A stretch of 64,000 nucleotides of DNA, taken from a virus (Duplodnaviria > Caudoviricetes). The DNA lies in the IMG/VR virus record IMGVR_UViG_3300032038_000065, positions 6,450-70,449 of that record; one strand, written 5' to 3'. A program made the translations under genes and the position numbers. The notes beneath the pieces were generated by a model, which ran no database searches, was not told the DNA's origin, and saw only the letters and a program-made list of their open reading frames with translations. This document shows positions 15,249 to 63,883 of this stretch, piece by piece; within the stretch, counting starts at the first letter, position 1; each line of letters opens with the position of its first letter.

Positions 15249-15819
15249 AGCGATGGAAGATCTTAAACATGCGGACACCAAAGAACTTGGTGAAGCTGTT
15301 GATATGATTAAAGATCTTTCAGAAGCTATTTATTATTGTACTATTACATAGTCAATGAAGGCGGTTGAACAAATAAAACCGACTGAGGTTAATTATTATA
15401 CAACCCCAGTCTATCAGAAAATGAGTCCTGAGTACTGGCCGCCCGACCCGTACCAAGACAAAAATAGAGACAGAGGGTATAGAATGTATTATCCTAACGC
15501 TGGTGGCTCTGGGAATTCTGGGGCAGGAACCGGCACTCCGGGTAATGTAAATTATTATCCCGCCGCACTCCCATCTGATTTAAAACCAGATTGGAATAAC
15601 CAAATGCGCGATCCAAGAGAAGGAAGATCTGCAGTGAGAAGGAGAATGTATATGGAAGGGAAAGAGGCTCATAACGATCCTGATTCTCAACTTAGAGAAT
15701 TAGAGGTTTATCTCCAAGAACTTTCAACTGACTTAACAGAAATGATTAAGGATGCTTCTCCGGAAGAAAGGGTAACACTGCATCAGAAAATGATGACCCT
15801 AGCTAATAAATTAGCATAA
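15217..15819 (+). CDS. Conserved phage protein (DMIKDL family; 200 aa, 1 TAG)
   Basis: KELGEAVDMIKDLSEAIYYCTIT*SM continues in frame into the ORF-track 15355 ORF. Confidence 0.7.
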
Positions 15820-16133
15820 TGTTTGTAATAAATAACATACCGTGGAAATTATCTATTGTGCCCTAGGGCTTCCCATTATTGCGGAGACCCTAGGGTGGAT
15901 ATACAATAGGGGCATGCGATAATCTGACAAGAACTGTTTATATATGCGAGGGATTATCAAAACAACAATTTAAAAAAGTTTTATGTCATTAGATTACGCA
16001 TGCCGCAATGTTTTCTTATAATATTGGTCTTTTCACAGACCAATAGGAATTGGTAGCTGATTTAATTTCTACATATGGAGATTAGATTATTTATATTACA
16101 AACAAAATATTTTCAAAATTAGAGAATATTTAA
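15819..16133 (+). CDS. Small zinc metallopeptidase-like protein, HExxH motif with Glu encoded by TAG (104 aa)
   Basis: KKVLCH*ITHAAMFSY (TAG 15990-15992); ATG overlaps the previous TAA. Missed by the ORF track. Confidence 0.8.
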
Positions 16134-16148
16134 TAAGGTTATGCGAAA

Positions 16149-16190
16149 TGGTCATTGGCGCTTTAAGGGTGCTAATGACCATTTTTTTTT
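16149..16190 (+). terminator. Rho-independent terminator
   Basis: TGGTCATTGGCGC/GTGCTAATGACCA stem plus T run. Confidence 0.75.
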
Positions 16191-16214
16191 ATGCCCTAGA
16201 AAGGAGAAAAATAA

Positions 16215-17498
16215 ATGGCTCAAAAAATTAATGCTATTAAAATTAAACAAGCTAATGGATCTTATACAGGAGAGATTCCTTTTGGAATCAATGCTGCAAA
16301 TGTTTTTTATCAAAAGCGTCCTTTAACTGGTGTTTTAGGCGATATTGACACTACAACTACATTGGCAGAGCAGTTTACCGCTCTTCAAGGGGAATGTGAA
16401 GCAATTAAGCACAGCACTGGAACGCCAATTGTTATTAAAGATATGGCAGAAAGAATAGACGAAGATAAAATTTATGTATATAATCCTGATACTCCTGATA
16501 CAGACAGTGGAAAATGGTATTATTATGATAAAGATACCTCTTCTTGGGCTGAAGGTGGACAGTATCAGTCTGCTTCTGTCACTGTCGATGCCACCCTTCA
16601 AGCACAAGACGTGCCCGCAGATGCAAAAGCAGTTGGAGATGCTATTAAGATAACAAAAAAAGAAACTATGCAAGCAATAGCAGATGAATATGATGCTACT
16701 AAAACATACTATCCTTTAGCTTATACTTTAAAAAATAATATTATATACAAAAATAAAAGCGATAGTTTAGTTACTGGAGCTTGGAATAGTGACAAATGGT
16801 AGCCCATTAACTCTTTAACCGAAGAAATAAACAATGAACATGCTGCAATTAGAGAATAGGCAAATACAATTTTAATGGCGACCTATGATGAAAATTCAAC
16901 AATTTAGTTTGTTGAGACAGAAGCAAATAAGAACTTTGCCTCTTTAGAAGTAAAAATTACTGATTCTTCAAAATTAACCGCTAGATCTGTTGCTATTACT
17001 CATACTGGTGCCAATAGTGAAAGTAATGTTATTACTATTAAGCTTCCCGCCACGGGAGATCTTACAAATAGTATAATTGATGTTGTTAACAGTACAATTA
17101 CATTAAATAATGGAACTACTGCGGCAGTAACGGTAACAAATAGTAATGGTCAATTACAACATTATCTTGGCTTAAATACTTTAACTCTTGTCCCCGCAAA
17201 TTGTGGAGTAATAATTTTTTCACACGATTTAAATATTGATGGACATTTAGCCGTTAATAATTATAAACTTGCTTCTTCTTTAATTAATGAAAATAATTTA
17301 ATGAGCGCTACTGCTTCTAAAGCCTATGCTGTAAATGATTATTTAATTATGAATAATATATTATATCGAGTAACAGCCCCTATTGCATCTGGTGAGTCTA
17401 TTGTAGAAAATACTAACGTTGTTACAACAACAGTTACAGAAGAATTAACTCGACTTGCTGAGATTTTAGATAATCTTTCTAATAATTCTAATCCGTAA
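16215..17498 (+). CDS. Tail fibre protein 1, MAQK module (427 aa, 3 TAG)
   Basis: Frame continuous across TAG to the 17301-17498 fragment; ADAKAVGDAI and KAYAVNDY fibre repeats. Confidence 0.75.
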
Positions 17499-17514
17499 TA
17501 AGGAGGGTTAATAT

Positions 17515-19542
17515 ATGGCTCAAAAAATTAGTGCAGTAAAAATTAAATATCGAAATGGCACTTATTCAAGTGAAATTCCTTTATATATAGATTCTTCTAA
17601 AGTAATATATGATAATGGATCTCCGCTTGAAAGTATTTTTGGTATTTTAAATGAAACAACAAGCGTTGCAAAACAATTAAATGATTTAACTCAATAGATT
17701 AATATAATTAAAAATAATATGTGCGCCTATGCAGTTGTTTTAAACGAATCTTAGTTCAATGATGCTGATAATCCACTTAATACAAATGTTGTTTATATTT
17801 GTAAAGACCCAAATGCTGTTACATATAGCACAAATCACTGGTATAGTTGGAATGGATCTCAGTGGCTTGATGGAGGCATTTTTGGGAATGCTTTAATTGA
17901 AACAAATAAGACTTTACGCGCGCCAGGTATTGCAGCGGATGCGGCATCCGCTGGAGATGCAATTGCTGAAATAACCCAATATACTATAAAGCAATTAGCT
18001 AAATAGTATGAGACAACTAAGACTTATAATTCTGGGGATTATGCTTTATATGAAAACAATGTAACGCATGAATTAGAATTATATCGATGCAATGATACGA
18101 CAACATCAACTTGGAACGCTAGTAAATGGGATAAAGTTACAATTTTTGATTAGTTTGTACGAGATCACAACTCCTTAAGAAGGCAAATTGCAGAAATTGT
18201 AAACGGAACAAGTGATTTTAAAGAAAGCGCAACATTTACTAGCAATACATAGAATATTATACCACTTTTACAAGTTAAAATCGATCCAGCGCGGGGACGG
18301 TCCGGAGATCCCTCGCCTGATAATGTGCAGCCAATTTCCGGCTTCACGGGGGCGCGGGTCGTGCGGTGCGGGCGGAATCTCTCCGTGCTGCGCAACGACA
18401 CCAATCAGGACGCGTGGAAGTTTACCTATTCACTCCAGGATGGTGGAAATATTACCTGTGTAAAAAACGCCGCGGAGAACCGCTTTTTCGCCAAGTATCT
18501 GTTCCCCGCCGTCAAGGGCACGGCATACCGATTCAAATTCGACAGTTTCACGCTCAACGGTGCGGACTCCCACATTCCCACATACCTGTACCGTGACGCG
18601 CTGTGGGGCGAGCAGCTTGGCTATTTCATCATTCCGTTATCCGGAGAGGCCACATGGACCGCGACGGAATCCGGCCTGATCGTTCTGGGATTGTACGCCT
18701 CCAGTCAGTGGTTTGGTGAGGGCGCTCAGCTCGCCATGAACGGCTTCCGCGTCGGCCTGGCTGCGGAGGAGGACAAAGGGTACGAGGCATCCGTCTGGGA
18801 TACCGTTGACGTCGCCTTCCCCTCCGAGGCCGGGACGGTAGGCGCTGGTACGCTGGACCTGACGGCGGGGGTATTGACGGTGACGCACCTGTTTAAACAG
18901 CTCGACGGAACGGAGACGTGGACACTTGCTGGAGAGGATGGCACCCCATATTTTTCTACGCCTTTTGGCGCTACATTGAAAAATGCAGCAAGTGGATGGT
19001 GTTCTCATTTTAAATGGGCACGGGTCCGCAAGACAACCTCAAGTATTGGCGTGGATGTGTTTAATTCAACCATCGTAGCTCGTCCCCCAGCTGACATCGC
19101 GCAAACGGTCGACGACTGGAAAGCCTGGCTTGCAGGACAAGCAAATAATAATACACCAGTGCAAGTAGTCTGTCCTTTAATTGAACCACAGACATATGTA
19201 TTAACTCCAATACAAATTATGACACTTATAGGAAACAACACAATTTTTGCGGATTGTGGACCAGTTAAAACTATATCTACTAAAATTAATATTAATACAA
19301 TTATAAAGTAGGGCAATAATGTTTTTAAATCTATTGTTTCTAATTCTGATATAAATACTATGATAGCAGATAAGAATTATAGTAAAGACAATTATTTAAT
19401 TATAAATAATATTGTTTATAAAGTGATAGCAGACTCTTTATTATAGGGAGCAGACATTATTGTTGAAGGAAATAATGCGAATGTTAGTAAAACTAATATT
19501 TGTGAGGAGTTAACATATTTATTTAACACTTTAGGAGTATAA
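17515..19542 (+). CDS. Tail fibre protein 2 with GC-rich internal module (675 aa)
   Basis: MAQK start; includes ORF 18325-19311 in frame; ends TAA 19540. Confidence 0.75.
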
Positions 19543-19545
19543 GAA

Positions 19546-21972
19546 ATGGCTCAAAAAATTAGTGCAGTAAAAATTAAATATCAAAATGGCACTTATTCAA
19601 GTTAGATACCTTTCGCACTTAAAGCAGAAAATGTGTTTTTTGATAAAGTGCCATTAAGTTCTTATTTAGAAAATTTTAAAAATAAAACTAATACTGATAT
19701 TGAAAATATCAATAATGAATTAGATTCTGCTGTTACAACAATAAATACTCACGTTGAAACAGAAATAAGAACAATACAGCAAGAAGTCGCCACTTTAAAG
19801 GGGCTTGTCGGCAGTCCATTAATAGCTAGTTCTGTTGCAGATATGACAGATAAAGAAAAAATTTATGTTTATAAAAATAATGATAGCACAGATACAAACA
19901 ATGGAAAATGGTTTTATCATGATGGAACTAATTGGATAATTGGTGGAATTTATCAATCTGATGGCTTAGATACCGACAAAACCTTACTGGGAGAAAATAT
20001 GGCTGCAGACGCAAAGGCTACCGGCGAGGCGATTGATAAGTTAAAGACACAGATAAATCTTTCTGACAATCAGCGGTTTATCAATTTTGGTAAGATTCTG
20101 AACAATACTCAGATTAAAACACGGTATCAGTACGGCAGATACAATATCAACGGATTTACAGATGTCATAACAACGACAGCGAGAAACAGTGTTGCGTATC
20201 CGGCAGGGACATATAAAGTCAGTGCATTTGCAATCTCTAATCGTCCGTGCCTTTATGGAACAGATTCAAGCGGTACATGGCTCACGGAGAATTATACTCT
20301 TTCGGAATATACGTTTACGGCAAGCGGTAAATGGTATATGAATTTCTACAATTCAGCGGGATTGTCTTCTGCCGATATTGAAAGCATAAACAATAACTTT
20401 GTAATTGTTTTGGTTTCCACTGATACAATTGAGAAAAAAGTATCAGATCTTGAAGATGCCGATGCGACTTTGCAAGCGGATATAGACGAACTTTCCGACG
20501 AAATAGGAAATATCTCAACCGAAACTCCATCGTTTAATTATAATCCCGGAAATTATGTTGGCGGTTATATTACGCCAACAGACGGAACATGGACAGACAG
20601 AGCGATTGAAGCATCTCCGTCGTACATGGGAACGAAAGAATTTGTCGAAATCCCGTCAGACTGCATTTTTGTAATTCACGGTTTCGCAGGTTCAAGCAAT
20701 ATTTCATTGAGATATGCGATCTATGACGCATCGAAAAACTATCTTGACGGCGCAAGTGTGGCAAACACAGACCTGACAGTTATGTCAAATCCGTTTACAG
20801 CGTCATATTTCAGTATTTCAAACCATCAAGCAAAATATATTAGATTCTCTGCATTGACAAGCACTTTCTCGCTTGTTAAGTTTGAGATTCAAAAGGGATT
20901 TGTACCCTCTGTCTATACAGAATACGGCGTGAGTACTCTAAGCAAAACGCAGTATTTACCGGATTCCGCAAAAAGTGAACTGTATGGTAGCAGACCAATC
21001 AACAACAAAGCCGCAACACTGACGGCGAACCAGTATTTATATCTTCCTGTTGTAAACAGTTTGAGAAAAAACAAGGTATATCACTGGTATGCGGATATTG
21101 ATAATACTTTTGAGTCGATGAAATTCGGTCACGGCGAAGGGGAGTATTCACTTTATTGGATTATTGACGGAACAAATCTTACTTTCTATACAAACGGTAC
21201 AGCGGGTACGGTAATTGCTCACGGTCTTACGTTAAGTACATATATTGACATTGTACTCAAAGTGGGGAGTACGGGAACGGGTGATATTGTCATCAATACC
21301 CTCGGCGGGCAGTATAAATACACAATATCTGTTGTAAACGGGTATAAAGGTTCTATTTTCCTTTGCTCGACAACAAACGCATTAAGCAATGCTTATGTTT
21401 CTTGTGCTTCGCCTGACTATGTTACACCAATATGGTTCTTTGGGGACAGTTATTTTACTCACACATCAGTAAAAAGATGGCCCTATCATTTGATTGATAT
21501 GGGGTTTGACAAATACGTTTTGGACGGATATCCCGGAGCTAATAGTAAAGCAATGCTCCCGCAGGTATTTGACTTCGTAAATAATTATGGATGCCCGAAA
21601 TACCTTGTATGGTGTCTGGGCATGAATGACAAAGATGATACTGCAAATCAAACACCGAACGCGGACTGGCTTGAATGCGTCAATTTGCTGTCTGATTTCT
21701 GCGAAGAGCGCGACATTGAATTGATTCTTGCAGTAATTCCGAACACCCCGGCAACAAGTACGGCTTACTGCAATTATTACAAGGATACATGGATTAAGTC
21801 CCACGATTTCAGATATATTGATTTTGCAAAAGCTGTCGGGGCAGAAACTCTTAATTCCGAATGGATACCGGGTACCCTTGACGATGTATGCCATCCTACT
21901 GAACAGGGCGCAAAACTTCTTGCATTGCAAGTACTCAAAGATTTCCCGGAAATCGAATTAGGTATTGGGTGA
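19546..21972 (+). CDS. Tail fibre/spike with C-terminal SGNH hydrolase (808 aa, single TAG at codon 20)
   Basis: MAQK module with TAG at 19603. SGNH blocks FFGDSY, GYPG, GMND and DDVCHP. Confidence 0.8.
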
Positions 21973-22057
21973 TGTAAAGAAATCTTTAAGTTACCAACCG
22001 GAAGCAAGGGGGAGGCCGATCCCTCGAATGACAATATAAGAAAATTGGAGAGTTATT

Positions 22058-23221
22058 ATGCCTGAATTCATTTTTCCCTTTAAAGGAAGAATTAACTTTT
22101 CTTCTCCTTTTGGAAACAGAATTCTAAATGGAGAAAAAAATTGGCATGCGGGAATTGACCTTGTTGGTCTTGATAATAAAACAGTTATTGCACCTTGTGA
22201 TGCAACTGTTGGTGTATCTACTCTTGTGCCAAAAGAAACAGATATGACATTAACATGGCAATGGGGTAATTATGTACGTTTAGATACTAAAAATGGTTTA
22301 AAAATTTATTTATGCCATCTTTCTCAAAGGCTCGTAAAAGCGGGAGATGTTGTAAAGGCAGGAGATCCAATAGGAATAGAAGGAAATACTGGATATTCCT
22401 TTGGGTCTCACCTCCATTTTGAAGTAAGAAAAAACGGACAATCTGTTTCCCCATGTCCATATTTAGGAATAGAAAATAAGGCGGGAGTGGTGCTGAATGT
22501 CACCTCAACCGCATAGAAGCGGTTAGACACTTATGTTAAAAATGGTTTAACATTTAGACGCTTAAAATCTTTTAGAATTGTATATCATGATGCTACAAAA
22601 GCAAATGCAAACTATTATTATTATATAAATGCGGGTTTCTTTGGTAATTTCAGGGCTTACAACAATGCAATATTTACTTTGCCCGTTGCTAATCTTGTAT
22701 GCGACCCTTGGAATATCCCAAGCTAGGGAAGAAAAGAAATTATGCCACATATTAAAAACAACAAATTATATTGGTCTTGTGCAGATAATCATTCAGATCA
22801 ATTTAAAAACAAAAAAGTGTCTACATTAATTATTCCAGCAAGCGGCGACCCTTATGTTGCAGATCTTTCAGCGCCTCCGAAAGACTGTCAATATGCTATA
22901 AGTGGTGTTCCCGCAGTAAGGAATAAAGATGATGTAGATTATTACGGATATGTAAAGAAACAAGGCTGGGATGATTCCTGCATGGGACCTGCTGCCCGCA
23001 ATTGGATAGGTATTAGAGAAGGTTAGCTCTGGATTATAAGCGGAACTACCTCTTCCCGCAATTATATATATGGTATGGAATTCTGGAAAAAAGTTAAAGA
23101 TGAAAAATTCGATGACATTTTAACTTTAGATGGCGGCGGTTCATATATTTATAGAGACGGCGCTAAAGTATCTAAAACCGCAGAGAATAGACGAATAAAT
23201 AATTTAATTATTTTTAATTGA
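22058..23221 (+). CDS. Endolysin-like: M23 peptidase plus C-terminal NAGPA/phosphodiester-glycosidase-like domain (387 aa, 3 TAG)
   Basis: HAGID, GNYV, YLCHL, GNTGYSFGSHLHFE (M23); LDGGGS in the C-terminus. TAG after TSTA, NIPS and IREG; ends TGA. Confidence 0.8.
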
Positions 23222-23274
23222 TAAGAGGAAGTTTTTTAACTTCCTCTTTATTTTTTTAGCAAAAGGAGAATAAA

Positions 23275-25149: not shown

Positions 25150-25181
25150 AATTTAATAATTATAATAATTTAAAATAATGT

Positions 25182-25217
25182 AAAAGGACTAGATAATTAA
25201 ATCTAGTCCCCTTTTTT
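25182..25217. terminator. Bidirectional terminator between convergent modules
   Basis: AAAA-GGACTAGAT-AATTAA-ATCTAGTCC-CC-TTTTTT. Confidence 0.75.
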
Positions 25218-25383
25218 ATGTTAATGGAGCAACGCCTTCTCCAACAGTACAAACACCTCCTTCACTCCATTTTTCTGCTAATTCTTTTAATATTTGCTAA
25301 AAATCTTTTAATTTTCCATTTTCATCTACAATAGAAATTTTGAAGTCTTTTAAATTAATAAAATCACCCCCAGTTAATTTCAT
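25216..25383 (-). CDS. Small hypothetical protein (55 aa, 1 TAG)
   Basis: MKLTGGDFINLKDFKISIVDENGKLKDF*QILKELAEKW...; overlaps the end of the RuvC-like gene. Confidence 0.4.
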
Positions 25384-25852
25384 TATTATTTTTAATCCAA
25401 TAGGCATCAAATATACAAATTGCATCTGCCTAATCATCATTAACTGTAATATTATATTTATTCTTTACATATTCAATATCGCGCGGTTTCAGCTATTCAC
25501 GTTTTATACCTCGCCCTTGTTTGATTTTAATCGCGGCCCGCCACTAACTCGCATTAACAAAGCTATATTCAATTTTTTTATCAATCTCATATGCGGCGAC
25601 GATTATCACAGCTTGAAGCCACATTAATACCTTGTTTGTATGCGAATTAACCTCTGGCCGCACCTATTCCATAACAATTTTATTTATATTATATTCTTCA
25701 ATTAATTTACTTATCTAATCTCGCATTTTGATAATTCTTGCAACTACATCTTTAGAGGACGCCGCAACACAGGTATGAAACTATAATTCAGATTCTGTTC
25801 CTATTGCGACGCCAGTACTATGCGTAGAAGCATCAATTGTCATTATTCTCAT
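25364..25852 (-). CDS. RuvC-like Holliday junction resolvase (162 aa, 6 TAG)
   Basis: MTIDASTHSTG, IVME*VRP, AS*WR, NDD*ADAICI; ends TGA. Absent from the ORF track. Confidence 0.8.
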
Positions 25853-25889
25853 ATATATACCTCAATTCAGAAATCTTCTATTTGACATA

Positions 25890-25918
25890 AGTATAAAATA
25901 AATTTTGTCTTAAGTCAA
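25890..25918 (-). promoter_or_regulatory. sigmaA-type promoter for the RuvC-like gene
   Basis: Minus strand TTGACT-17 nt-TATACT. Confidence 0.75.
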
Positions 25919-25928
25919 GTAAAAAAAT

Positions 25929-25960
25929 AAGGGAGACTACTATTTAAGTAGTCTCCCTTT
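25929..25960 (-). terminator. Rho-independent terminator
   Basis: AAGGGAGACTAC...GTAGTCTCCCTT inverted repeat with A/T tracts. Confidence 0.75.
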
Positions 25961-56100: not shown

Positions 56101-56235
56101 AGAAACATTGCACAAATTGTCGTATCTAATAAAAAAGAAACGGAAGAACTTATTGAAATTCTTCTTGGTCCATCAGTGCCTCCAAGAAGAGAATTCTTAT
56201 TAAATCATGAAAATGAAGCAAATGTTTTTGATTAA
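53126..56235 (+). CDS. gyrB: Type IIA topoisomerase B subunit, spliced: exon 1 53126-54857, exon 2 56048-56235 (639 aa)
   Basis: EIVSNSIDE, DNGRGIP, GGEHGTG, SEGDSA, FPIRGK, ADADPDG. Splicing restores RNKG-LGEQ...RREFL. No TAG in the exons. Confidence 0.9.
54858..56047 (+). mobile_element. Group I intron (1190 nt) in gyrB
   Basis: P1 AAGGGU/GCCCUU with U.G at the splice site; P10 GUCUG/UAGGC; P7 GACUAU/AUAGUC; terminal G at 56047. Confidence 0.88.
55050..55922 (+). CDS. Intron-encoded GIY-YIG homing endonuclease (290 aa, 8 TAG)
   Basis: MGIYKYTN...IYIGLS; GYNLTKGG; C-terminal NUMOD1-like AVKNINTGLIFNSISKAAKW; ends TAA. Confidence 0.85.
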
Positions 56236-56246
56236 AGGAGAAAGAA

Positions 56247-58592
56247 ATGAATAATAAAACTATAGAATTAACGCAAGAATTGTCTCAAAATTTTCTTGAT
56301 TTTTCTCATGAAGTTAATTATCAAAGAGCATTTGCTGATGCAAGGGATGGACTTAAACCTGGACAGCGCGCCTGTTTATGGGAAATGTATCAAAAAGGCT
56401 ATAAAAGTAATAAACCTCATGTTAAATCCGCGAAAATAAGCGGCGGAGTAATCAGTAATTGGTGGCCACATTCGGATGCTGCGATTTATGAAACATTCGC
56501 CAGAATGTCTCAATCTTGGATCAATAACATACCTGAGGTTGATTGGCATGGAGCAAATGGTTCTGTCCAAATCAGTGGGGAGCCTGCAGCCAGTCGCTAT
56601 ACTGAAGCAAGATTATCTAAACTTGTTGAAGAAGGAATGTTATTAAATATTAATAAAAATAATGTTCCTATGAAGCCCAATTTTTCTGATGATGAGAAAT
56701 GGCCAGTTGTTTTCCCTGCAATTTTTCCTCGACTATTAGTAAACGGATGTCAAGGAATCGGAAGTACCATCGCCAATGTTTGGCTTCCTAATTGCTTCTC
56801 GGAAGTAGCTCAAGTTATTGAAGAATATTTGACCACAGGTAATATTAATTATAATTTACTTGCTCCCTCTTTTCCAAGTGGCGGAATAATTATTAATAAA
56901 AATGATATTAAGACAATTTATACAACAGGAAAAGGAAAAGTGATTCTTCGTGGAAAAGCAGAAATTAAAAACAATATTATTATTATTACAGAAATTCCAT
57001 ATCAAGTATATGTAGAACCTTTAATTGATGAAATTAAAAAATATGCGATAGAAGAAAATAGTAATATTGAAAGCGTATTAAATAAAAGTAGCAAAAAAAT
57101 TTGCATCGAAGTAGAATGCTCTGGGAATCCAGAATACGTATTACAACAATTATACAAAAAGACTAACTTACAAAAAATTTATAATGCTAATCAATTTGCG
57201 CTTACAGAAGATGGAACCCCTAAGTTATTAAATATTGAAGAATATTTAAAAATTTATGTAAAGCATAATATCACTTGCATTTTAAAAGAAACTAAATTTG
57301 ATTTAGACAAAGCCGAAAATAGGCTTGAAATTGTAAATGGCTTACTTCGCGCTCTTGAAGACATTGATAATATTATCGCATTAATTAAAAAGTCTGAAAG
57401 CGCGGCGGCCGCCAAAGAAAACCTAATTGAAAAATATCAGTTTACAGAAAATCAAGCAAAGGCTATTCTTGCGATGAAGCTTTCTTCTCTTGCAAGACTA
57501 GAAAAGGTAGAACTTGAACAAGAAGCAGAAGAACTTAAAAACAAAATTAATGATCTTCAAAATATCCTTGCGAATAAAACCCGCCAAAAAGATATTCTTA
57601 AAAATAGACTTGCAGATCTTGTAAAAAAGTACGGAGATTCACGCAGAACCGAGCTTTTAAATATTGAAATTCCAAAAGAAGAAAAAGAAGTTGAAGAAAT
57701 AATCCCAGAAGATGTTGTAGTTATTTTAACTCAAACAGGGGACATTAAACGTATTCCTAAAAATGCTTTTAAAGTTCAAAGAAAAAATGGTAAGGGCGTC
57801 AAGAGCAAAGATGAAGCTATAATGTCAACAATAGCAACAAATACTGTTGATAATTTACTTTTGTTTACTAAAAAGGGAAAAATGTTTAAGATCCTTGTTA
57901 ATGATCTTCCTGTGGGAACTAATGCTTCAAAAGGAACAAATGTCAGATCATTAATTAACTTAGAAGATGATGAAGTCATTGCAATCACGTCACTTGTAAA
58001 GAGTACTACTGCAAAATATGTTGTATTCTTTACAAAACAGGGTTTAATGAAAAAGACTTTGCTTGATGAATACACCTCAGTAAAAAAGAGTTGCGGCATT
58101 GCAGCAATTAAATTAAAAGAAGGAGATTCTATTGCAAATGTAGAGTTCCTTAATGAAGAAGATGTTTTAGTAATCACTAAGAATGGTATGGCAATTCATT
58201 TTGAAAGCAAGAGTGTTAATCCAATAGGAAGAGTAACTGCTGGGGTTAAAGCAATTAAACTTGATGAAGATGATGAAGTAATTGTAGGATTACCAATTCA
58301 TTCAAATGAAGATGTTATTGGTATTTTCTCAAGTAAGGGATATGGGAAGAAAACTTCAATTAAAGAATTTACAACACAAGTGCGGGGCGGAAAGGGTTTA
58401 ATTATTTATAAGCCGACTGCTATATATGGTCATGTTGCGGGAGCCACAGCAATTCAGGATTCTAACGCGGTACTCCTAGCTGGTCAACCGTCTTCTATCT
58501 GCGTTTCCGCAACAGATATTCCTTTAGCAACAAGAACAAGTTATGGTAATATCATGATTAAATCTAATATTGTTTCTGTTGTGAAAATTTAA
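56247..58592 (+). CDS. gyrA: Type IIA topoisomerase A subunit (gyrase-like)
   Basis: DGLKPGQR, AASRYTEAR (active Tyr), GyrA-box-like QRKNGKG, beta-pinwheel repeats; 781 aa, no TAG. Confidence 0.9.
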   Translation: MNNKTIELTQELSQNFLDFSHEVNYQRAFADARDGLKPGQRACLWEMYQKGYKSNKPHVKSAKISGGVISNWWPHSDAAIYETFARMSQSWINNIPEVDWHGANGSVQISGEPAASRYTEARLSKLVEEGMLLNINKNNVPMKPNFSDDEKWPVVFPAIFPRLLVNGCQGIGSTIANVWLPNCFSEVAQVIEEYLTTGNINYNLLAPSFPSGGIIINKNDIKTIYTTGKGKVILRGKAEIKNNIIIITEIPYQVYVEPLIDEIKKYAIEENSNIESVLNKSSKKICIEVECSGNPEYVLQQLYKKTNLQKIYNANQFALTEDGTPKLLNIEEYLKIYVKHNITCILKETKFDLDKAENRLEIVNGLLRALEDIDNIIALIKKSESAAAAKENLIEKYQFTENQAKAILAMKLSSLARLEKVELEQEAEELKNKINDLQNILANKTRQKDILKNRLADLVKKYGDSRRTELLNIEIPKEEKEVEEIIPEDVVVILTQTGDIKRIPKNAFKVQRKNGKGVKSKDEAIMSTIATNTVDNLLLFTKKGKMFKILVNDLPVGTNASKGTNVRSLINLEDDEVIAITSLVKSTTAKYVVFFTKQGLMKKTLLDEYTSVKKSCGIAAIKLKEGDSIANVEFLNEEDVLVITKNGMAIHFESKSVNPIGRVTAGVKAIKLDEDDEVIVGLPIHSNEDVIGIFSSKGYGKKTSIKEFTTQVRGGKGLIIYKPTAIYGHVAGATAIQDSNAVLLAGQPSSICVSATDIPLATRTSYGNIMIKSNIVSVVKI

Positions 58593-58615
58593 ATATGGGG
58601 CTTACCGCCCCATAT

Positions 58616-58644
58616 TTGCTTTTTATAAAAAATTATATTATAAT
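58616..58644 (+). promoter_or_regulatory. sigmaA-type promoter overlapping the terminator at 58591-58625
   Basis: TTGCTT-17 nt-TATAAT; hairpin AAATATGGGG/CCCCATATTT. Confidence 0.72.
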
Positions 58645-58675
58645 ATAATATAAAATCAAAAAGGAAGAAAAAATA

Positions 58676-60637
58676 ATGACAATTGCAGAAGCTAGTTATA
58701 AAATAACAGAACTAATTAAAAAATTAAATACTTACACAGAAGCATATGATAATGGACATCCTCTTGTTTCTGATAAAGAATATGATGATTTATATTTTGA
58801 ATTAGAATCTTTAGAGAATAAATATAATCTTGTTTATCCTAATTCACCTACTCAAAATATCCATTGGAATATTCTTTCTAAGTTAGAAAAGGTAGAGCAT
58901 AACCATCCTATGCTGTCTCTTGATAAAACAAAAGATATTGTTGAATTAGCAAAGTTTTTTGGCGGAAAAGAATTTGTTTGTATGTTTAAAATGGATGGTT
59001 TAACTCTTTCTCTGCTATACGAAGATGGAGAATTAGTTAGAGCAGAAACCCGCGGCAATGGGACAATAGGAGAAGATGTAACACATAATGCGAAGGTAGT
59101 TAAAAATATTCCTCAAAAAATTCCTTGCAAAGAAAGACTAGTTATTGATGGGGAAATCATTTGCCGCAAAGATGATTTCCAAAAGTTTAAAGATGATTAT
59201 AAAAACCCTCGTAACTTCGCGGCGGGGAGTATTAGACTTCTTAACGCGCATGAATGTGAGGAACGTAATCTAACTTTTGTTGCGTGGGATTTAGTTGAAG
59301 GACTGCAAGAAGATGTTGTTAGATTTCAGCAAAAATTATTTAAATTGGCAAATTTAGGCTTTACTGTTGTCCCATATACCATTTCTGATAATGTTGAAGA
59401 AGCATTAGATGCAATGGATTTTGAATTAGATTATCATGATATTTATCCTACTGATGGATATGTATTTAAATTTTCTGACCTTGAATATGGAGAAGCTCAA
59501 GGTCGTACGGAACATCATAGAAAAAATGCAATCGCGCTGAAGCTATATGATGAAACGTACGAAACAGAGCTTATAAACATTGAGTGGACCATGGGAAGAA
59601 CATCTCTTCTTACTCCTATTGCTATTTGTAAACCAGTTGAAATTGATGGTGCAGTTATAGAAAGATGTTCTCTTCATAATGTTAGTGTTATGACGGAATT
59701 GCTTGGAGAATGTCCATATGTAGGGGAGCCGCTAGAGATCGCAAGAGTGAATCAAATTATTCCTCAAGTATATAAAGCCGGACCTAAATATGATTATTTA
59801 ACCGTTATTAAAAATAAATTATCTCCATTAAATAAAATTGAATATTGTCCAATTTGTAATTCAAAAGTAGAATACAAAACAAGTTTTGATGGAGTTACTA
59901 ATGCCTATTGCGGGAACCCCCTATGCGAAGGGGCTCTTATTAATCGACTGGATCATTTCTTTGGAAAGAAATCTCTTGATGTAAAAGGGTTATCAAAAGC
60001 AACATTTGAAAAACTTATTGCATGGGGATGGATTGAAAAGATTGAAGATGTCTTTACTCTTGGAGAGAATCATTGCGGCGATTGGATAAATAAGCCTGGG
60101 TTTGGTCAAGCATCTGTAATGAAAATTCTTAATGCTATTGACAATGGGAAGAAAACAACTTTATCCGCCTTTATCTCAGCAATTGGAATTCCCCTTATAG
60201 GTCAAACTAATGCCAAAGAATTAGCAAAGAAATTTAAAACATATGATGAATTCCGCATAGCAGTTGATGACCCTGATTATTCTTTTACTTCAATTTATGG
60301 TTTTGGAATTGAAATGAATAATAGTCTTAAAAAATTTGATTATGCGGAAGCCGATAAATTAGTTACTTATCTTACTTTTGATATGCCCGCCGCAACAGAA
60401 AATGGGAACAGCCTTACAGGAATGAATATAGTTATCACAGGCAAATTATCTACAAATAGAGATAGCTTTAAAAAACTTATAGAAGAACATGGCGGGAAGG
60501 TGACTTCCGCAATTAGCTCAAAAACTTCGTTGCTTATTAATAATGATATCAATAGTACAAGTTCTAAAAACAAAACTGCGAAAGAGCTTGGGATTCCTAT
60601 TGTGTCTGAACAGCAGTTTATTAACGACTATCTTTGA
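58676..60637 (+). CDS. ligA: NAD-dependent DNA ligase
   Basis: SDKEYD, HPMLSL, KMDGL, RGNGTIGEDVT, NPRNFAAGS, Cys4 finger, C-terminal BRCT; no TAG. Confidence 0.92.
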   Translation: MTIAEASYKITELIKKLNTYTEAYDNGHPLVSDKEYDDLYFELESLENKYNLVYPNSPTQNIHWNILSKLEKVEHNHPMLSLDKTKDIVELAKFFGGKEFVCMFKMDGLTLSLLYEDGELVRAETRGNGTIGEDVTHNAKVVKNIPQKIPCKERLVIDGEIICRKDDFQKFKDDYKNPRNFAAGSIRLLNAHECEERNLTFVAWDLVEGLQEDVVRFQQKLFKLANLGFTVVPYTISDNVEEALDAMDFELDYHDIYPTDGYVFKFSDLEYGEAQGRTEHHRKNAIALKLYDETYETELINIEWTMGRTSLLTPIAICKPVEIDGAVIERCSLHNVSVMTELLGECPYVGEPLEIARVNQIIPQVYKAGPKYDYLTVIKNKLSPLNKIEYCPICNSKVEYKTSFDGVTNAYCGNPLCEGALINRLDHFFGKKSLDVKGLSKATFEKLIAWGWIEKIEDVFTLGENHCGDWINKPGFGQASVMKILNAIDNGKKTTLSAFISAIGIPLIGQTNAKELAKKFKTYDEFRIAVDDPDYSFTSIYGFGIEMNNSLKKFDYAEADKLVTYLTFDMPAATENGNSLTGMNIVITGKLSTNRDSFKKLIEEHGGKVTSAISSKTSLLINNDINSTSSKNKTAKELGIPIVSEQQFINDYL

Positions 60638-60727: not shown

Positions 60728-60798
60728 AAAATAGATGATAAAGAAGAAATAAAAATTCATCGAAAAAATATTTTTTAAATTAAAAGGAGAAAAGAAAA

Positions 60799-61083
60799 AT
60801 GCTTAAGGAAAATAGTAGACTTGTTTATGATTTTGTGAAGAACCATGATGGTGAAGATTTTACGGCTCAGGACATTGCTGATGCTACCGGTCTCGGCGTG
60901 AAGACTGTAAATGGCATTGTTACCTCTGCTTTCCAGAGACACAAGGATAAGGATAAGAATGAGGTTCCGCTGATGATTCGTGTCCCTGCGGAAATTGAAG
61001 ATCCTGTTACCAAGCTTCATAAGGCTGTTAAGTTCATTCAGCTTACGCCCGAGGGACGCGCTTTCAATCCCGACGAAGACTAA
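60799..61083 (+). CDS. Small winged-HTH DNA-binding protein
   Basis: FTAQDIADATGLGVKTVNGIVT helix-turn-helix; AGGAG RBS. Confidence 0.7.
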   Translation: MLKENSRLVYDFVKNHDGEDFTAQDIADATGLGVKTVNGIVTSAFQRHKDKDKNEVPLMIRVPAEIEDPVTKLHKAVKFIQLTPEGRAFNPDED

Positions 61084-61147
61084 TATAAGAGCTGTATTTA
61101 AATAAGGGGTAGGTACTAATATATCTACCCTTTATTTTACGACTAAT

Positions 61148-62089
61148 ATGATGACATTAATTATTTCAATTATATTTATATTTTTAGGTTTATGTGCAAT
61201 TGCGATAGGTTTTGTTTTGTTTTATAAAGCAAATCAATTAAAAATTTAGCATGACTAGTAGCAATAGTTAATAAATCAACATTTAAGAGACGAAACCAAA
61301 TCATGGCAAAATGCTTTATATGAAGCACAGGTATAGTATAATAAAAATAAAGAATAGTTATAGAAAAGCAATGACATTTGGAAGAAAAATAAAGAAGAAG
61401 AACTACAAACTTGGCTAACTGAAAAACAAAATTATTATCAACAAAGAGCGCAAAGTTCATAGGCATATTCTGAATAGCGTATTGAATAGGCAAACCAACA
61501 ATTTAAAATGTATCAAGAGTAGATTCAAAAAGAAAAAGAAGCTGCTAATAAAGAATTGGAAAAAATTAAATCTTCTCTTACCGCGGGAATCGAAGCTAAT
61601 TTAAGATAGCAATAGAAAAAAGAAAAAATTAATTTTTATAAAATATCTATTAATGAAGCAGATATGGCAGACATCCAAATGCTAGAAAATTTAAAGCTAT
61701 CTTTTAGAAAACCTGTTGTTCTAAGTAAACTTATATGGTCACAGTATTTTCAAAAACAAGTTACTTAGTTATGCGATAGACTTACTGGTAAGAAAACTAT
61801 TTGTGGTATTTATAAAATTACAGACTTGCTTACATAGCAATGTTACATCGGGCAAAGCGTGGATATAAGCTAGCGCTTTAAATCCCATTGCAAATGCGGG
61901 CTTGGGATAGATGCTCCTGCAACCAATAAATTATATAATACAATGCAAAAAGATAAATTATGGAATTTTACTTTTGAAATATTAGAAGAGTGCCCACGCG
62001 AGCAACTAAATGAGAAAGAGGCATTTTGGATCAATATGTATCAAAGCAATGTTTTTGGTATGAATGGGAATAAAGGAGTAAATAAATGA
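61148..62089 (+). CDS. Membrane-anchored coiled-coil protein with C-terminal GIY-YIG domain (313 aa, 16 TAG)
   Basis: N-terminal TM helix, coiled coil, CGIYKIT...CYIGQS; ends TGA overlapping the next ATG. Confidence 0.78.
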
Positions 62090-63883
62090 AATTTGAAAAT
62101 ACAGAGGTTTGGGGATTTTAGGCCGCTCTTCGTGGGATGAGAAATCCTAAAAATAGTTGGTAGAAAAATGATACTATTATTTATGATGAAGACACCTCTT
62201 CTTTTGATGAAGGACAAAATCTTGGTAATACTCCAATGTGTGTATATATCGGCCCGAATGATATGAAACTTGCTCAAACCCTTATTAAAGCTGGACCCGA
62301 ACATAGAAAATTTCTTAGACAAATTTTTGTTACTGTTGATATTACAGCTCCACTTTATTGGTATTAAGATCTACTTCTTTCTGCCAATGAAATGCTTTTC
62401 CTACTTATCGGTAGGGGTCACTAATATTTAGTGGCTAACGGGGAACCACCCATTGGAATCCCGTGGGAAACTTTTATAAATTATTAAAATTTTTGGTCAA
62501 AATCAAATTATTCGTATCCTCTATTTTTTATATATATTAGAAACAAATAGGAGGATTATTATTATGAAAGAAAAACAGGTAAGACAATCAAAGCCGAGAG
62601 TTGATTTAACTGGTAAAAAATTTGGAAAATTAACTCCGTTATATTATATAAAAGGCGGTAAATGGCATTGTAAATGTGACTGCGGAAATGAATGTGATGT
62701 AGACACAAGAAATTTAAATAGTAATCATACTCAATCTTGTGGCTGTTTAGTTAAAGAAAAAGCAGCTAACAATGCTATAAATATGATAGGCTATGAAGAT
62801 GATAATTTCAAAGTTTTAGAACGAGATGGTTCATCACCTCAAGGAATTGCTTATTGGAAATGTTTATGCAAACATTGTGGAAATATTTTCACCACAAAAG
62901 GTAGTAACATTCGTTCTGTTGGAATTCAATCTTGTGGTTGTCAACATTCTAAAGGTGAACAAAAAATTACAAAAATGTTAATTGATGAAGGATGCACTTT
63001 TTCGACTCAATATACCTTTCCTGATTTAATTGGAGTAGGCGGAGGTAGATTAAGATTTGATTTTGCCATCTTTTTAAATAATCAGTTAGATTGTCTTATA
63101 GAATATAATGGCTTACAACATTATGAAAAACCTCAAGGAAAATGGGGTGAAGAGTGGGAAAAATTAATTGAGAATGATAAAAGAAAAAAAGAATACTGTG
63201 AAAAACATTGTATTCCATTAAAAGTTATAAAATATGACCAGGATTTTACAATTTTAGATTTAATATAATTTATAAAAGAACCTGTAGAGACTATCCCCTA
63301 TGCCTTATAGGGCGGGGGAGTAGGGGTATTATTGATACGTACCTAGGTTTTAGGAAACGAAGCCTATGAAAACCGAAATGGCATCCTCTTATATAAGAGT
63401 AAAAGATAGTCCAAAAATGGGAAAGAAATGGACACTTATAAAATCGGCACAGTCGCTAATAGTACGTCAACTATGCATAAGTTAACAAGCAAACCAATCA
63501 CCCTTGATTGTTTTGAGACAGATGATTTTAATTCAGATTTAGTTTATTATACTGAACCAAATCCATATTCTGATGTTTATATTGAAATGGAAAATACAAC
63601 AGGTATGCTGTCTGATATTATAATTGAACAACTTGAATTTCTTCGTCAAAAATATCTTGAAACAAAAGATAAGAAATATTGGAAATAGCTTGTGCGGTGG
63701 CTTCCTTAGGGATGGCTTCAGACTAGAACTTGGACAGCAAATTATGAAGTCATTCGAACTATGGTTCATCAACGATAGATGCATAAATTAAATTAGTGGA
63801 GCGGTTTAGATGATCCATCTAAAAATAATTTTATAAAATGGGCTAAATCATTACCCTATGCTAATGAATTTATTTTTAATTGA
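62086..63883 (+). CDS. Conserved phage protein, possibly ThyX-fold, spliced: exon 1 62086-62362, exon 2 63420-63883 (246 aa, 6 TAG)
   Basis: GF*AALRGMRNP, EHRKFLRQI. Splicing restores ITAPLYW-WKEMDTYKIG; YWK*L, HKLN*W. The ThyX link is recalled only. Confidence 0.75.
62493..62533 (+). promoter_or_regulatory. Putative late promoter motif inside the intron, upstream of its endonuclease
   Basis: TTGGTCAA-N25-TTTTATAT. Confidence 0.5.
62564..63268 (+). CDS. Intron-encoded endonuclease (Cys-rich repeats + DUF559/Vsr-like domain), no TAG
   Basis: WHCKCDCGN..SCGC repeats; RFDFAIF...LIEYNGLQHY; paralogous to 5236-6195. Confidence 0.82.
   Translation: MKEKQVRQSKPRVDLTGKKFGKLTPLYYIKGGKWHCKCDCGNECDVDTRNLNSNHTQSCGCLVKEKAANNAINMIGYEDDNFKVLERDGSSPQGIAYWKCLCKHCGNIFTTKGSNIRSVGIQSCGCQHSKGEQKITKMLIDEGCTFSTQYTFPDLIGVGGGRLRFDFAIFLNNQLDCLIEYNGLQHYEKPQGKWGEEWEKLIENDKRKKEYCEKHCIPLKVIKYDQDFTILDLI

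Follow-up and report, generated by a model that had tools for sequence, protein, structure and literature searches.

The window analysed here, a stretch of 64,000 nucleotides, covers about half of the genome (~135 kb, 34% GC) of a tailed phage from the bovine gut or rumen. Its main late-gene block (5236..48719, without a single assigned strand) holds 226 of the 269 TAG codons that lie in frame in a 44-gene set, and encodes an HNH endonuclease, structural and tail proteins, five tail-fibre-like proteins, an M23 peptidase, a RuvC-like nuclease and the tape measure protein. The latter (31091-39994, minus strand; 2,967 aa) is specified with 80 TAG codons, a structural gene of 1,076 aa (6966..10196, plus strand) contains 22 and a conserved tail or virion gene of 660 aa (10196..12178, plus strand) contains 15. 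Six are found in the RuvC-like nuclease gene (25364..25852, minus strand; Pfam RuvC and DUF3882), and 16 within the 313 codons of a GIY-YIG homing-endonuclease-like gene (61148..62089, plus strand). TAG is absent from two groups of genes on the plus strand, one encoding an RNA ligase, an 85-aa ORF, an AAA_33 kinase and a phosphoesterase (48900..51604), and the other GyrB, GyrA and an NAD-dependent DNA ligase with 163 Glu codons combined (53126..60637). The second group is interrupted by a TAG-containing GIY-YIG gene (55050-55922). The end of the phage tRNA cluster contains tRNA-Ser(GCU) (2183-2275, plus strand), followed by a tRNA-Lys body whose anticodon loop carries an insert of 62-65 nt (3036-3170, plus strand).

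The phage is a distant relative of phAss-1 from the proposed Phassvirus group (Babkin et al. 2023, PMC10607447; OQ749652) and belongs to the same broad family, its marker protein being 32% identical over 99% of the length. phAss-1 is alike in its genome size (~136 kb), a tape measure protein of ~3,000 aa, large tRNA arrays and TAG codons in terminase, tail and lysis genes. The phAss-1-like family of ~130-150-kb siphophages is defined by shared marker proteins, a tape measure protein of ~3,000 aa and an array of tRNA genes, all three of which the phage has. The 660-aa gene served as the marker for collecting 64 related loci, which were compared with the window at the DNA level together with nine complete or near-complete relatives. 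In the marker tree, the window falls within an 18-row clade (support 99) inside the phAss-1-like family, and every member of this well-supported clade has in-frame TAG. The complete members compared are G001-G004, and the sister clade is represented by the genomes G008 and G009. Distant relatives of the phage family infect Bacillota.

Over the part compared, an ENA assembly does not differ from the contig of the window, and short contigs from a bovine-gut run match across nine TAG sites with zero differences and without any T-to-G variant, although this is contig-level evidence only. Both data sets may come from the source sample. The T at the TAG sites is not an assembly quirk, and independent support is provided by the same pattern in relatives from other samples.

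TAG as a sense codon in one gene set

The window contains 29 ORFs of at least 150 aa under table 11 and 40 when TAG is read through. Readthrough yields frames of 2,967, 1,709, 1,362 and 1,076 aa with 80, 13, 25 and 22 TAG codons, respectively, and none of the 44 genes has an in-frame TAA or TGA. An earlier note on this DNA had stated that TAG readthrough restores kilobase-long frames, which these numbers bear out, and that no confidently bounded gene ends in TAG. ORF logic alone is insufficient for the latter claim, and in five genes (12201-12899, 14398-14769, 23218-25149, 48432-48719 and 55050-55922) TAG occurs 0-9 codons ahead of TAA or TGA, so that its use as a stop cannot be excluded there. 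TAA is the main terminator, ending 36 of the 44 genes, and never interrupts conserved frames. Homologue alignments that extend by at least five residues on both sides span 209 of the 269 TAG codons. The pattern expected of a recoded phage, i.e., a single stop type inside conserved genes and full-length homologues restored by readthrough, is therefore present.

The use of TAG is bimodal. Thirteen genes have no TAG at 332 GAA and GAG codons, and the remaining 31 have 269 TAG versus 799 GAA and GAG. Within these TAG-containing genes, which encode structural proteins, lysis functions and nucleases, TAG accounts for 25% of GAA, GAG and TAG combined, and GAG is still present at 1.24% of codons. An upstream region of small genes shows 13 TAG in 3,599 codons. 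A second hallmark of recoded phages is thus met, namely the concentration of TAG in one gene set, with gyrase, ligases and RNA repair compatible with the standard code, although the timing of expression is inferred. Such a distribution is in line with the published model that genes whose translation precedes the build-up of the suppressor keep standard-code compatibility.

The amino acid at TAG sites

The window proteins, with TAG written as X, were compared by tblastn with the 64 related loci, which gave 2,660 cells aligned to TAG. Their pooled composition (E 34.9%, D 10.6%, N 9.2%, K 7.3%, Q 2.9%) resembles that of cells under Glu codons of the same window (E 39.2%, D 11.4%, K 7.6%, N 6.2%, Q 5.7%) and not that under Gln codons (Q 27.8%, K 10.9%, E 10.7%). 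In a log-likelihood ranking, Glu comes first and Gln second at 1,029 nats behind, and if only standard-code relatives are used, Glu is best for the window and for each of G001-G004, with Gln 450-560 nats behind. Pooled likelihoods overstate significance because cells from related sequences are not independent, and per-site counts are the safer basis. The plurality residue is E at 45% and Q at 4% of the TAG sites, compared with 53% and 4% under Glu codons, and 10% and 39% under Gln codons. The 19 TAG columns that are at least 80% conserved comprise 18 E, one N and no Q. A mixture fit assigns a Gln share of 0.08 to the TAG columns (bootstrap 0-0.18), and a 20-component fit a Gln share of 0. The preference for Glu over Gln, the central claim of the earlier note, thus withstood a test that had been set beforehand in all four forms: pooled cells, per-site plurality, conserved columns and mixture fit. 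Its caveat of mixed Glu/Gln decoding survives only as the minor share allowed by the fit.

Other codes are recovered elsewhere in the family: the identical script puts Gln first for the sister-clade genomes G008 and G009, which also have in-frame TAG, and in a third clade in-frame TGA codons align for the most part to Trp. The alignment of TAG to Gln that defines code 15 is accordingly seen in the sister clade, which acts as positive control, and not in the window, where the profile is that of Glu. NCBI tables 30 and 31 (UAR=Glu) do not apply, as TAA terminates and is never read as sense in conserved frames. Pyrrolysine decoding was likewise dismissed, with Lys ~1,500 nats below Glu in the column profile, a judgement made without a search for pylS.

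Individual sites agree with this picture. All 24 codons cited in the earlier note lie where it had placed them and in the peptide context it gave, including the internal paralogues with GAA or GAG opposite TAG. TAG at 43031 (LKA-X-NV) thus corresponds to GAA at 19627 and 23356, and the TAG in the N-terminal module shared by the tail-fibre paralogues (YSS-X-IPFALKA; 19603..19605, plus strand; likewise 23332, and 43055 on the minus strand) to GAA at 17572 and GAG at 16272. The two Gln counter-examples are equally real (TAG 41654 versus CAG 42914, and TAG 5848 versus CAA 62960). In the 660-aa gene, TAG codons at 10298, 10733, 10757, 11081 and 12041 fall in columns with 77-89% Glu, the column at 10757 consisting of 64 E and nine TAG among 73. 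The column at TAG 8232 of the 1,076-aa gene is E in 57 of 71, and that at codon 154 of the GIY-YIG gene (61148..62089) in 119 of 119.

The argument from catalytic residues is also sound. In a 104-aa protein (15819-16133, plus strand), the glutamate of an HExxH motif is written as TAG (15990..15992, VLCH-X-ITH); both histidines are conserved in 26 of 26 relatives, and the column under TAG holds E in 25 and TAG in one. In RNase HI (plus strand; Pfam RNase_H, E=9.5e-26), the catalytic Glu48 is TAG (52703..52705, TTNNRM-X-LMA), and PDB alignments, including 3h08, place this TAG53 at the Glu of TTNNRMELMA in the E. coli and Chlorobium enzymes. A second TAG (52730, TAG62) aligns to the conserved Glu57, and relatives have E at both sites in 8/8 cases. 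Among family motifs listed in the earlier note, ME-X of the RuvC-like nuclease holds (TAG 25664; E in 33 of 42), although the matching residue of the E. coli RuvC motif could presumably be Gln, whereas NDD-X-ADAI was imprecise, as it is not the catalytic Asp position and its column contains 22 E and 10 I. Comparative columns reveal the residue needed at a position, not the one that the ribosome inserts, and neither peptide nor aminoacylation data are available.

Suppressor tRNAs of the clade and a proposed mechanism

A tRNA(CUA), which the earlier note had suggested looking for, was not found in the phage, i.e., in the window with its tRNA cluster end (2183..3170), the 70-kb contig or the 86-kb ENA contig containing it. 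The search was successful in relatives: in Glu-type lineages with in-frame TAG, the tRNA regions of ten members were read, and each of these carries one tRNA(CUA); the marker protein of these suppressor-bearing relatives is at most ~64% identical to that of the window. The label "Pyl" given by ARAGORN is merely its name for any CUA anticodon. In the cloverleaf, covariation of both bases preserves 13 of the 20 pairs, and the loop CUCUAAA is invariant. U11-A24 is present in 10/10 and also in 15 of 22 family tRNA-Glu, while C11-G24 is found in 17 of 20 family tRNA-Gln. Pair 1-72 is C1-G72 or G1-C72 in eight suppressors, G-U in two and never U-A. Both pairs contradict the tRNA-Gln body expected for code 15, and the sister-clade suppressor displays U1-A72, G2-C71, G3-C70 and C11-G24, all Gln-like.

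When ~230 family tRNAs were screened for the acceptor pattern CG(C/U)(C/U)C...G(A/G)(A/G)UG-A, only two groups matched, four tRNA(CUA) of the Glu clade and the tRNA-Glu(UUC and CUC) of a standard-code relative. Overall similarity to the tRNAs of the family does not point to Glu alone, as Trp, Thr and Gln are among the best scores (0.64-0.74). One suppressor variant may even descend from a tRNA-Gln, because it is closest to the clade tRNA-Gln(UUG), with the likeness in the acceptor and T arms. Judged by their sequences, the features of the clade suppressor are tRNA-Glu-like and not tRNA-Gln-like.

By inference from the relatives, the phage itself would carry a clade-type suppressor in the ~50 kb that were not assembled. 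The phage-encoded GluRS or RF2 contemplated in the earlier note did not materialize, since neither PF00749 (Glu/Gln-tRNA synthetase) nor PF00472 (release factor) was found in G000-G004. Because the complete relatives encode no such synthetase, the suppressor would be charged with Glu by the host GluRS, although for charging itself there are no data. Against Glu charging, the anticodon is a major determinant for GluRS in E. coli, and CUA differs from UUC at two positions; CUA suppressors in E. coli drift towards Gln or Lys identity. The strong 1-72 pair in 8/10 copies and the Glu-type U11-A24 D stem would allow the suppressor to escape the Gln route, given that GlnRS and GatCAB both favour a weak U1-A72 pair. 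Once expressed, it would out-compete release factor 1 at UAG. E. coli laboratory amber suppressors (supE and the synthetic tRNA(CUA) series) are similar in that a single anticodon change creates a UAG reader charged by a host synthetase; the natural clade tRNA differs by features expected to block Gln identity, its charging being inferred.

Competing explanations and relation to known codes

In this phage, TAG is most probably read as glutamate, with an estimated probability of about 0.87, inferred from comparative data while protein-level proof is missing. An artefact, such as systematic G-to-T errors at GAG, a chimeric contig or a decaying genome, is practically ruled out: TAG and GAG do differ by only one base and the read evidence stays at contig level, but GAG persists in the same genes, TAA and TGA never interrupt the frames, the nine TAG sites are unchanged in the bovine-gut contigs, and more than ten relatives from other samples combine TAG in Glu columns with a matching tRNA(CUA). 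Ordinary code 15, as in crAss-like phages, Lak and phAss-1, would require the Glu signal to stem from GAG-to-TAG mutation at Gln-tolerant sites and is highly improbable, even though published phage amber recodings are all assigned to Gln, public gene calls for the window's contig render TAG as Q, and E/Q interchange is common at exposed sites. A single procedure yields Gln in the sister clade but Glu in the window's clade, conserved TAG columns are 18 to 0 in favour of Glu, and the Gln-type features of the sister-clade suppressor are missing from the clade suppressor. Code 15 would also place Gln at the HExxH Glu and at RNase HI Glu48, and Glu-to-Gln replacements at such catalytic positions inactivate enzymes. 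Ambiguous decoding, mostly as Glu but with a substantial share of Gln or termination and hence mixed products, appears unlikely. It draws on six of ~120 well-covered TAG sites with Gln plurality (33029, 33272, 33593, 39608, 39665 and 52757), the 18% Gln that the mixture fit allows at most, the Gln-like arms of one suppressor variant, the five genes with near-terminal TAG, and the ready mischarging of amber suppressors by GlnRS in E. coli. Gln-plurality columns are, however, equally frequent under TAG and ordinary Glu codons, the 20-component fit leaves no Gln share, frequent Gln insertion would be costly at the 18 near-invariant Glu columns, catalytic ones included, and a 2,967-aa protein with 80 TAG needs very efficient readthrough.

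A possibility that retains TAG=Glu, and which is doubtful but the most serious of the four, is that the host lineage itself lacks RF1 and reads TAG as Glu by a chromosomal Glu-type tRNA(CUA), the phage tRNA(CUA) only boosting a rare host tRNA. When prokaryotes were scanned with one genome per species, an uncultured Clostridia MAG (L281) emerged that has a tRNA(CUA) on a chromosomal contig (ThrRS, ZnuA, M48 and M18 peptidases, 55% GC); the acceptor stem of this tRNA (CGCCCCA/UGGGGUG) comes close to that of the phage suppressor, and its body resembles the MAG's tRNA-Glu(CUC). The only class-I release factor found in this MAG is RF2 (321+167 bits versus prfB, 159+63 versus prfA), and Bacillota are the hosts of distant relatives of the phage family. 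MAG and phage are nevertheless linked by tRNA resemblance alone and differ by 20 points in GC, and the absence of RF1 is weak evidence because the completeness of the MAG is unknown. Moreover, its RpoC has no in-frame stop, seven of the 54 long ORFs that table 11 gives in 70 kb still have TAG as their stop, and the exact phage-type suppressor pattern is absent from all representative prokaryote genomes searched. The sharp split between TAG-free and TAG-rich genes is predicted by a standard-code host, although it would also be expected from a scarce host tRNA.

The glutamate reading by a phage suppressor shares much with code 15 phages (crAss-like, Lak, Agate and others; Borges et al.): TAG clusters in the genes for structure and lysis and is missing from those for DNA metabolism, the phage can do without an aminoacyl-tRNA synthetase of its own, and a tRNA(CUA) is phage-encoded (here in relatives). 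It differs in the residue, Glu instead of Gln, in the Glu-type suppressor features and in that no phage RF2 was found. In phages with a code differing from that of the host, only TAG-to-Gln and TGA-to-Trp have been observed (Borges et al., bioRxiv 10.1101/2021.08.26.457843), and phAss-1 was reported to use TAG=Gln, with its suppressors called Gln by tRNAscan (PMC10607447); in the present tally, the phAss-like sister clade indeed gives Gln, and the window's clade Glu. Eukaryotic UAG=Glu codes (peritrich ciliates, NCBI table 30; Blastocrithidia, table 31; PMC12153298) likewise assign UAG to glutamate via a tRNA-Glu-derived tRNA(CUA), but there UAA is reassigned with UAG and the code is that of a whole cellular genome, whereas here TAA is the main terminator and only part of a viral gene set is concerned. 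A published case of TAG=Glu in a phage or bacterium was not found.

If TAG is Glu, standard pipelines would mistranslate the proteins of this phage, catalytic residues included, because they assume Gln for all recoded phages. The third clade, with TGA mainly at Trp as in code 4 phages, differs in both codon and amino acid; several changes of code have therefore taken place within the phage family. A tentative and rather doubtful extension is that the TAG=Glu code is common to a gut or rumen Clostridia lineage, RF1-less and with a chromosomal tRNA-Glu-derived tRNA(CUA), and its phages. TAG may then have been captured independently for Gln and Glu within one phage family through suppressors that differ in ancestry, with the amino acid decided by their 1-72 and 11-24 pairs.

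The phage genome and its in-frame amber codons

The window covers bases 6450–70449 of a 70,449-bp viral contig and has a GC content of 34%. A CheckV-type estimate puts the completeness of this contig at 45%, and relatives with terminal repeats have genome lengths of 130–145 kb. A sequence identical over the part compared is present in an 86,339-bp linear contig of an ENA assembly (ERZ27256903 k141_2772643), which extends it by 14,991 bp on the upstream side and by 899 bp on the downstream side; an end overlap, as expected for a circular molecule, was looked for in this contig and not found. Among the sequencing runs listed, only two, both of bovine-gut DNA, contain parts of the window, as contigs; no RNA run is among them. 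Its distant relatives are phAss-1 (OQ749652) and large Enterococcus siphophages.

The late region is of the siphophage type and encodes a 2,967-aa tape measure protein, an M23 peptidase and a RuvC-like nuclease. A PDB search with the RuvC-like protein gave no usable match, and a search for related loci with the tape measure protein returned a single, already known contig. Five tail-fibre-like genes have an N-terminal module in common, and the replication and repair genes encode GyrB, GyrA, an NAD-dependent DNA ligase, an RNA ligase, a kinase, a phosphoesterase and RNase HI, with several homing-endonuclease genes scattered among the other genes. RNA ligase, P-loop kinase and metallophosphoesterase follow each other at 48900–51604, none of them containing TAG; an 85-aa ORF, likewise without TAG, separates the ligase from the kinase. 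This arrangement resembles a tRNA/RNA repair module, in a phage that relies heavily on its own tRNAs. Directly upstream of the window, the phage's contig carries genes for a sigma-70-family factor and an RlaP-like protein. The extra 15 kb of the ENA contig contain small, mostly TAG-poor genes and a 2.3-kb stretch without called genes (3452–5808 of that contig).

At every coordinate quoted in the earlier note, codon and context are as it had stated. Its claim that TAG readthrough restores long frames is likewise borne out: the late region is shattered under table 11, and frames of up to 2,967 aa without internal TAA or TGA appear once TAG is read. A set of 44 genes from the window contains 269 in-frame TAG codons, 209 of which are spanned by homologue alignments with at least five residues on each side. 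These genes end in TAA (36) or TGA (8), which is partly by construction, because ORFs were bounded at these two codons. The proposal that no gene ends in TAG can therefore be upheld only in part, as TAG termination is not excluded in five genes (12201–12899, 14398–14769, 23218–25149, 48432–48719 and 55050–55922), in which TAG lies 0–9 codons before TAA or TGA and in one case is immediately followed by TAA. These codons may be former TAG terminators that are now read into short tails. In standard-code relatives, approximately 10% of long ORFs terminate in TAG.

The use of TAG is bimodal. It is absent from 13 genes with 332 Glu codons and makes up a quarter of the Glu-type codons in the other 31 genes; GAG is still used in TAG-containing genes (1.24% of codons). 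TAG also accounts for less than 4% of the Glu-type codons in the small genes that occupy 17 kb upstream of the window. This distribution agrees with the published proposal that genes expressed early have to be decodable while the suppressor is still lacking (Borges et al., bioRxiv 10.1101/2021.08.26.457843), an agreement that is not backed by expression data. Nine TAG sites are covered by short contigs of one sequencing run and show no difference from the window, which rules out a general G-to-T artefact as a credible explanation. Weightier evidence against an artefact comes from relatives assembled from other samples, which show the same behaviour.

The amino acid aligned to TAG

Sixty-four related IMG/VR loci were gathered with a 660-aa marker protein (10196–12178) and were later supplemented by complete genomes, or large parts thereof, of twelve relatives. 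The window's proteins, with X at TAG, were compared by tblastn with the relatives' DNA, so that the result does not depend on the code assumed by any annotation pipeline. A column tally on a large protein database was abandoned, since gene calls there already place Q at TAG; in the GIY-YIG family (61148–62089), 16% Q is found at the columns of the window's ordinary Glu codons, most likely because of the same mistranslation in relatives. Due to this contamination, the comparison was made at the DNA level only. In a public protein collection (P0003 and the homologues of 61148–62089), the proteins of this contig carry Q at every TAG, and public calls for the upstream genes of the ENA contig also translate TAG as Q.

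When all alignment cells are pooled, the residue opposite TAG is E in 34.9%, D in 10.6%, N in 9.2%, K in 7.3%, S in 5.8%, T in 5.5% and Q in 2.9%. For comparison, the window's ordinary Glu codons yield E in 39.2%, D in 11.4%, K in 7.6%, N in 6.2% and Q in 5.7%, and its Gln codons yield Q in 27.8%, K in 10.9% and E in 10.7%. Under empirical substitution profiles, Glu explains the TAG cells best and Gln follows 1,029 nats behind. As related sequences are not independent, sites were counted as well as pooled cells. At 120 TAG sites with at least eight homologues, the plurality residue is Glu in 45% and Gln in 4%; the corresponding values are 53% and 4% at Glu codons, and 10% and 39% at Gln codons. 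Among 19 columns that are at least 80% conserved under TAG, 18 contain Glu, one Asn and none Gln. The Gln share is 0.08 in a two-component mixture fit (bootstrap 0–0.18) and 0 in a twenty-component fit. Thus, the enrichment for Gln that would have refuted the Glu assignment is not seen in pooled cells, single sites, conserved columns or the mixture fit, all of which are Glu-like.

Functional residues point in the same direction, as the earlier note had argued. In a 104-aa protein (15819–16133), TAG occupies the Glu position of an HExxH motif. Both histidines of this motif are invariant in 26 relatives, 25 of which have Glu at the position of the window's TAG and one of which has TAG itself. 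RNase HI (Pfam E=9.5e-26) can be compared with the solved structures from E. coli and Chlorobium, both of which have the Glu of TTNNRMELMA opposite TAG53 and the next conserved Glu opposite TAG62. By general enzymology, exchange of Glu for Gln at such catalytic positions would inactivate HExxH enzymes and RNase HI. The internal paralogues could also be verified: at positions that are TAG in three copies of the window's tail-fibre genes, two other copies contain GAA or GAG.

Four codes occur among the related loci: besides the standard code, TAG is aligned either to Gln or to Glu, and TGA to Trp, each code forming a single clade or a small number of them in the tree of the marker protein. One set of relatives lacks in-frame stops and another contains in-frame TGA, mostly opposite the window's Trp. 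In a further set, in-frame TAG is mostly found opposite the window's Gln (e.g., locus L051: Q 26, K 10, E 6), and in the window's nearest relatives mostly opposite its Glu (e.g., locus L009: E 14 of 38). A separate tally for each genome, restricted to comparison with standard-code relatives, gave Glu for the window and for four complete members of its clade, whereas it gave Gln for two genomes of the phAss-like sister clade with the identical script and database. This demonstrates that the method separates Glu from Gln within one family. On the marker-protein tree, the window lies inside an 18-row clade (support 99), all members of which contain in-frame TAG; four of the 18 have only few TAG codons in the aligned genes, and their label rests on tree position.

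The suppressor tRNA and the possible host

The main gap in the case for TAG=Glu is that no tRNA(CUA) was detected in the window, the 70-kb contig or the extra 15 kb of the ENA contig, by ARAGORN with and without introns or by Rfam at permissive E-values. These contigs encode about a dozen tRNA genes in all. A 'tRNA-Pyl(cta)' with a 212-nt intron, predicted by ARAGORN at contig positions 5226–5512, was dropped for lack of Rfam support. Two tRNA genes carry inserts in the anticodon loop: one with a Lys-type body (window 3036–3170; 62–65 nt; Rfam 60.8 bits) and one with a Pro-like body (113–261 of the 70-kb contig; 75–78 nt; 47.1 bits). The inserts are too short for group I introns, and none of the splice registers yields CUA. 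Two atypical tRNA-like genes, both without a TTC loop, are also present. The UUG-anticodon gene at window 3245–3318, flagged in the earlier note, combines a D stem of Glu type (GUAU/GUAC) with G1-U72 and is missed by ARAGORN and Rfam; the UCC-anticodon gene at 1765–1835 of the 70-kb contig is found by Rfam only (48.8 bits).

One tRNA(CUA), usually within a large tRNA array, is present in all ten records of the Glu-type lineages whose tRNA regions were read; the copy of the complete clade member G001 spans 84243–84316. The ten copies form a functional-looking cloverleaf, in which 13 of 20 stem pairs are kept despite changes on both sides, and the anticodon loop CUCUAAA and U11-A24 are invariant. 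Pair 1-72 is C-G in six copies, G-C in two, G-U in two and never U-A, and G2-U71 occurs in seven. Among the family's tRNAs, U11-A24 is present in 15 of 22 tRNA-Glu genes and C11-G24 in 17 of 20 tRNA-Gln genes. The acceptor pattern CG(C/U)(C/U)C...G(A/G)(A/G)UG-A is shared, among approximately 230 family tRNAs, only by four Glu-clade tRNA(CUA) and by tRNA-Glu(UUC) and tRNA-Glu(CUC) of a standard-code relative. A D stem of the GUCU/GGAC type and a four-base variable loop, both hallmarks of bacterial tRNA-Glu, are found in several Glu-clade variants. The sister-clade suppressor, like tRNA-Gln, has C11-G24 and starts UGGGG...CCCCA (U1-A72, G2-C71, G3-C70). Overall similarity to approximately 377 distinct family tRNAs does not discriminate the isotype (identities of 0.64–0.74 to several), and specific base pairs were therefore relied on. 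One Glu-clade variant shares its acceptor and T arms with the clade's tRNA-Gln(UUG), and on sequence grounds a descent from tRNA-Gln followed by an identity change is possible.

Further peculiarities concern single relatives. The Gln-type suppressor of the sister-clade genomes G007–G009 (e.g., G009, c122558–122656) has a variable arm of approximately 20 nt and an encoded CCA end, and these genomes also contain odd 'Ser(ACU)' type-II tRNAs with CUA in their loops, one base out of register. The complete Glu-clade genome G004 (record L029) encodes an ochre-reading tRNA with anticodon UUA (90222–90296), and TAA is still its main terminator.

Neither the window's contig nor the four complete relatives encode a Glu/Gln-tRNA synthetase domain or a class-I release factor. 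The suppressor would be charged by a host GluRS and would then compete with RF1. In tRNA-Gln, a weak U1-A72 pair is what GlnRS as well as GatCAB rely on, and the strong 1-72 pair, together with the Glu-type D stem, may keep the suppressor away from both. These steps are inferred. What has been observed is where TAG lies within genes, that the aligned residues point to Glu, and that relatives have a conserved suppressor.

Alternatively, the phage could match a host in which TAG already specifies Glu, rather than override the host's code. One genome per prokaryote species was scanned: the exact phage-type suppressor pattern gave no match, and a loose CUA-anticodon pattern returned mostly unrelated suppressors and two relevant hits. 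One is a 3.3-kb, five-tRNA contig (L219) binned in a rumen Ruminococcus MAG; it carries a phage-type Glu-like suppressor, is probably a phage fragment binned with the bacterium and gives only a weak host hint. The other (L281) is a clearly chromosomal contig (ThrRS, ZnuA, peptidases; 55% GC) of an uncultured Clostridia MAG; its tRNA(CUA) combines the acceptor stem CGCCCCA/UGGGGUG with a body resembling the tRNA-Glu(CUC) of the same MAG. This 2.6-Mb MAG contains GlnRS, and RF2 is the only release factor detected. The MAG may belong to bacteria that read TAG as Glu, or its tRNA may be a natural suppressor that inserts Glu. Of 54 long ORFs in 70 kb of the MAG, 7 end in TAG under table 11. A match to the host's code is supported by this Glu-like chromosomal tRNA(CUA) and the detection of RF2 only, but an in-frame stop was looked for in RpoC of the MAG and not found, and we consider such a match rather unlikely. 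TAG in the window would be read as Glu in either case.

Glutamate as a probable third recoding outcome

Taken together, we assign a probability of roughly 0.87 to TAG specifying mainly glutamate in the window's phage. What doubt is left relates mostly to the residue that is actually inserted and to the suppressor, which has not been seen in this phage. It is established that phages recode stop codons and, to our knowledge, all published cases turn TAG into a Gln codon or TGA into a codon for Trp or Gly. The outcome is commonly explained by host synthetases that are 'intrinsically susceptible' to suppressor tRNAs. Full-text literature searches retrieved no description of UAG being read as Glu in phages or bacteria. 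Borges et al. (bioRxiv 10.1101/2021.08.26.457843) describe only TAG-to-Gln and TGA-to-Trp in phages with a code unlike that of their host, in contrast to the TAG-to-Glu inferred for the window's phage. A theta-ribozyme study sorted 180 phage suppressors into Gln, Trp, Ile or Tyr types. For phAss-1, table 15 was used in the annotation (TAG=Gln; PMC10607447), whereas TAG aligns to Glu in the window's phage, a distant relative of phAss-1. In eukaryotes, UAG=Glu is documented jointly with UAA (PMC12153298).

For annotation, table 15 gene callers place Gln at approximately 270 positions of this half-genome, catalytic glutamates included, a mistranslation that corrupts annotation, structure prediction and profile building. 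The clade's suppressor is a candidate natural Glu-inserting amber suppressor and as such a lead for engineering. A Glu-reading amber code in a phage clade would constitute a third recoding outcome, in which the amino acid, as inferred without charging data, is set by the body of the suppressor and not by the CUA anticodon alone. With the standard code, TAG=Gln, TAG=Glu and TGA=Trp in one family, the evolution of codon capture is open to study there.
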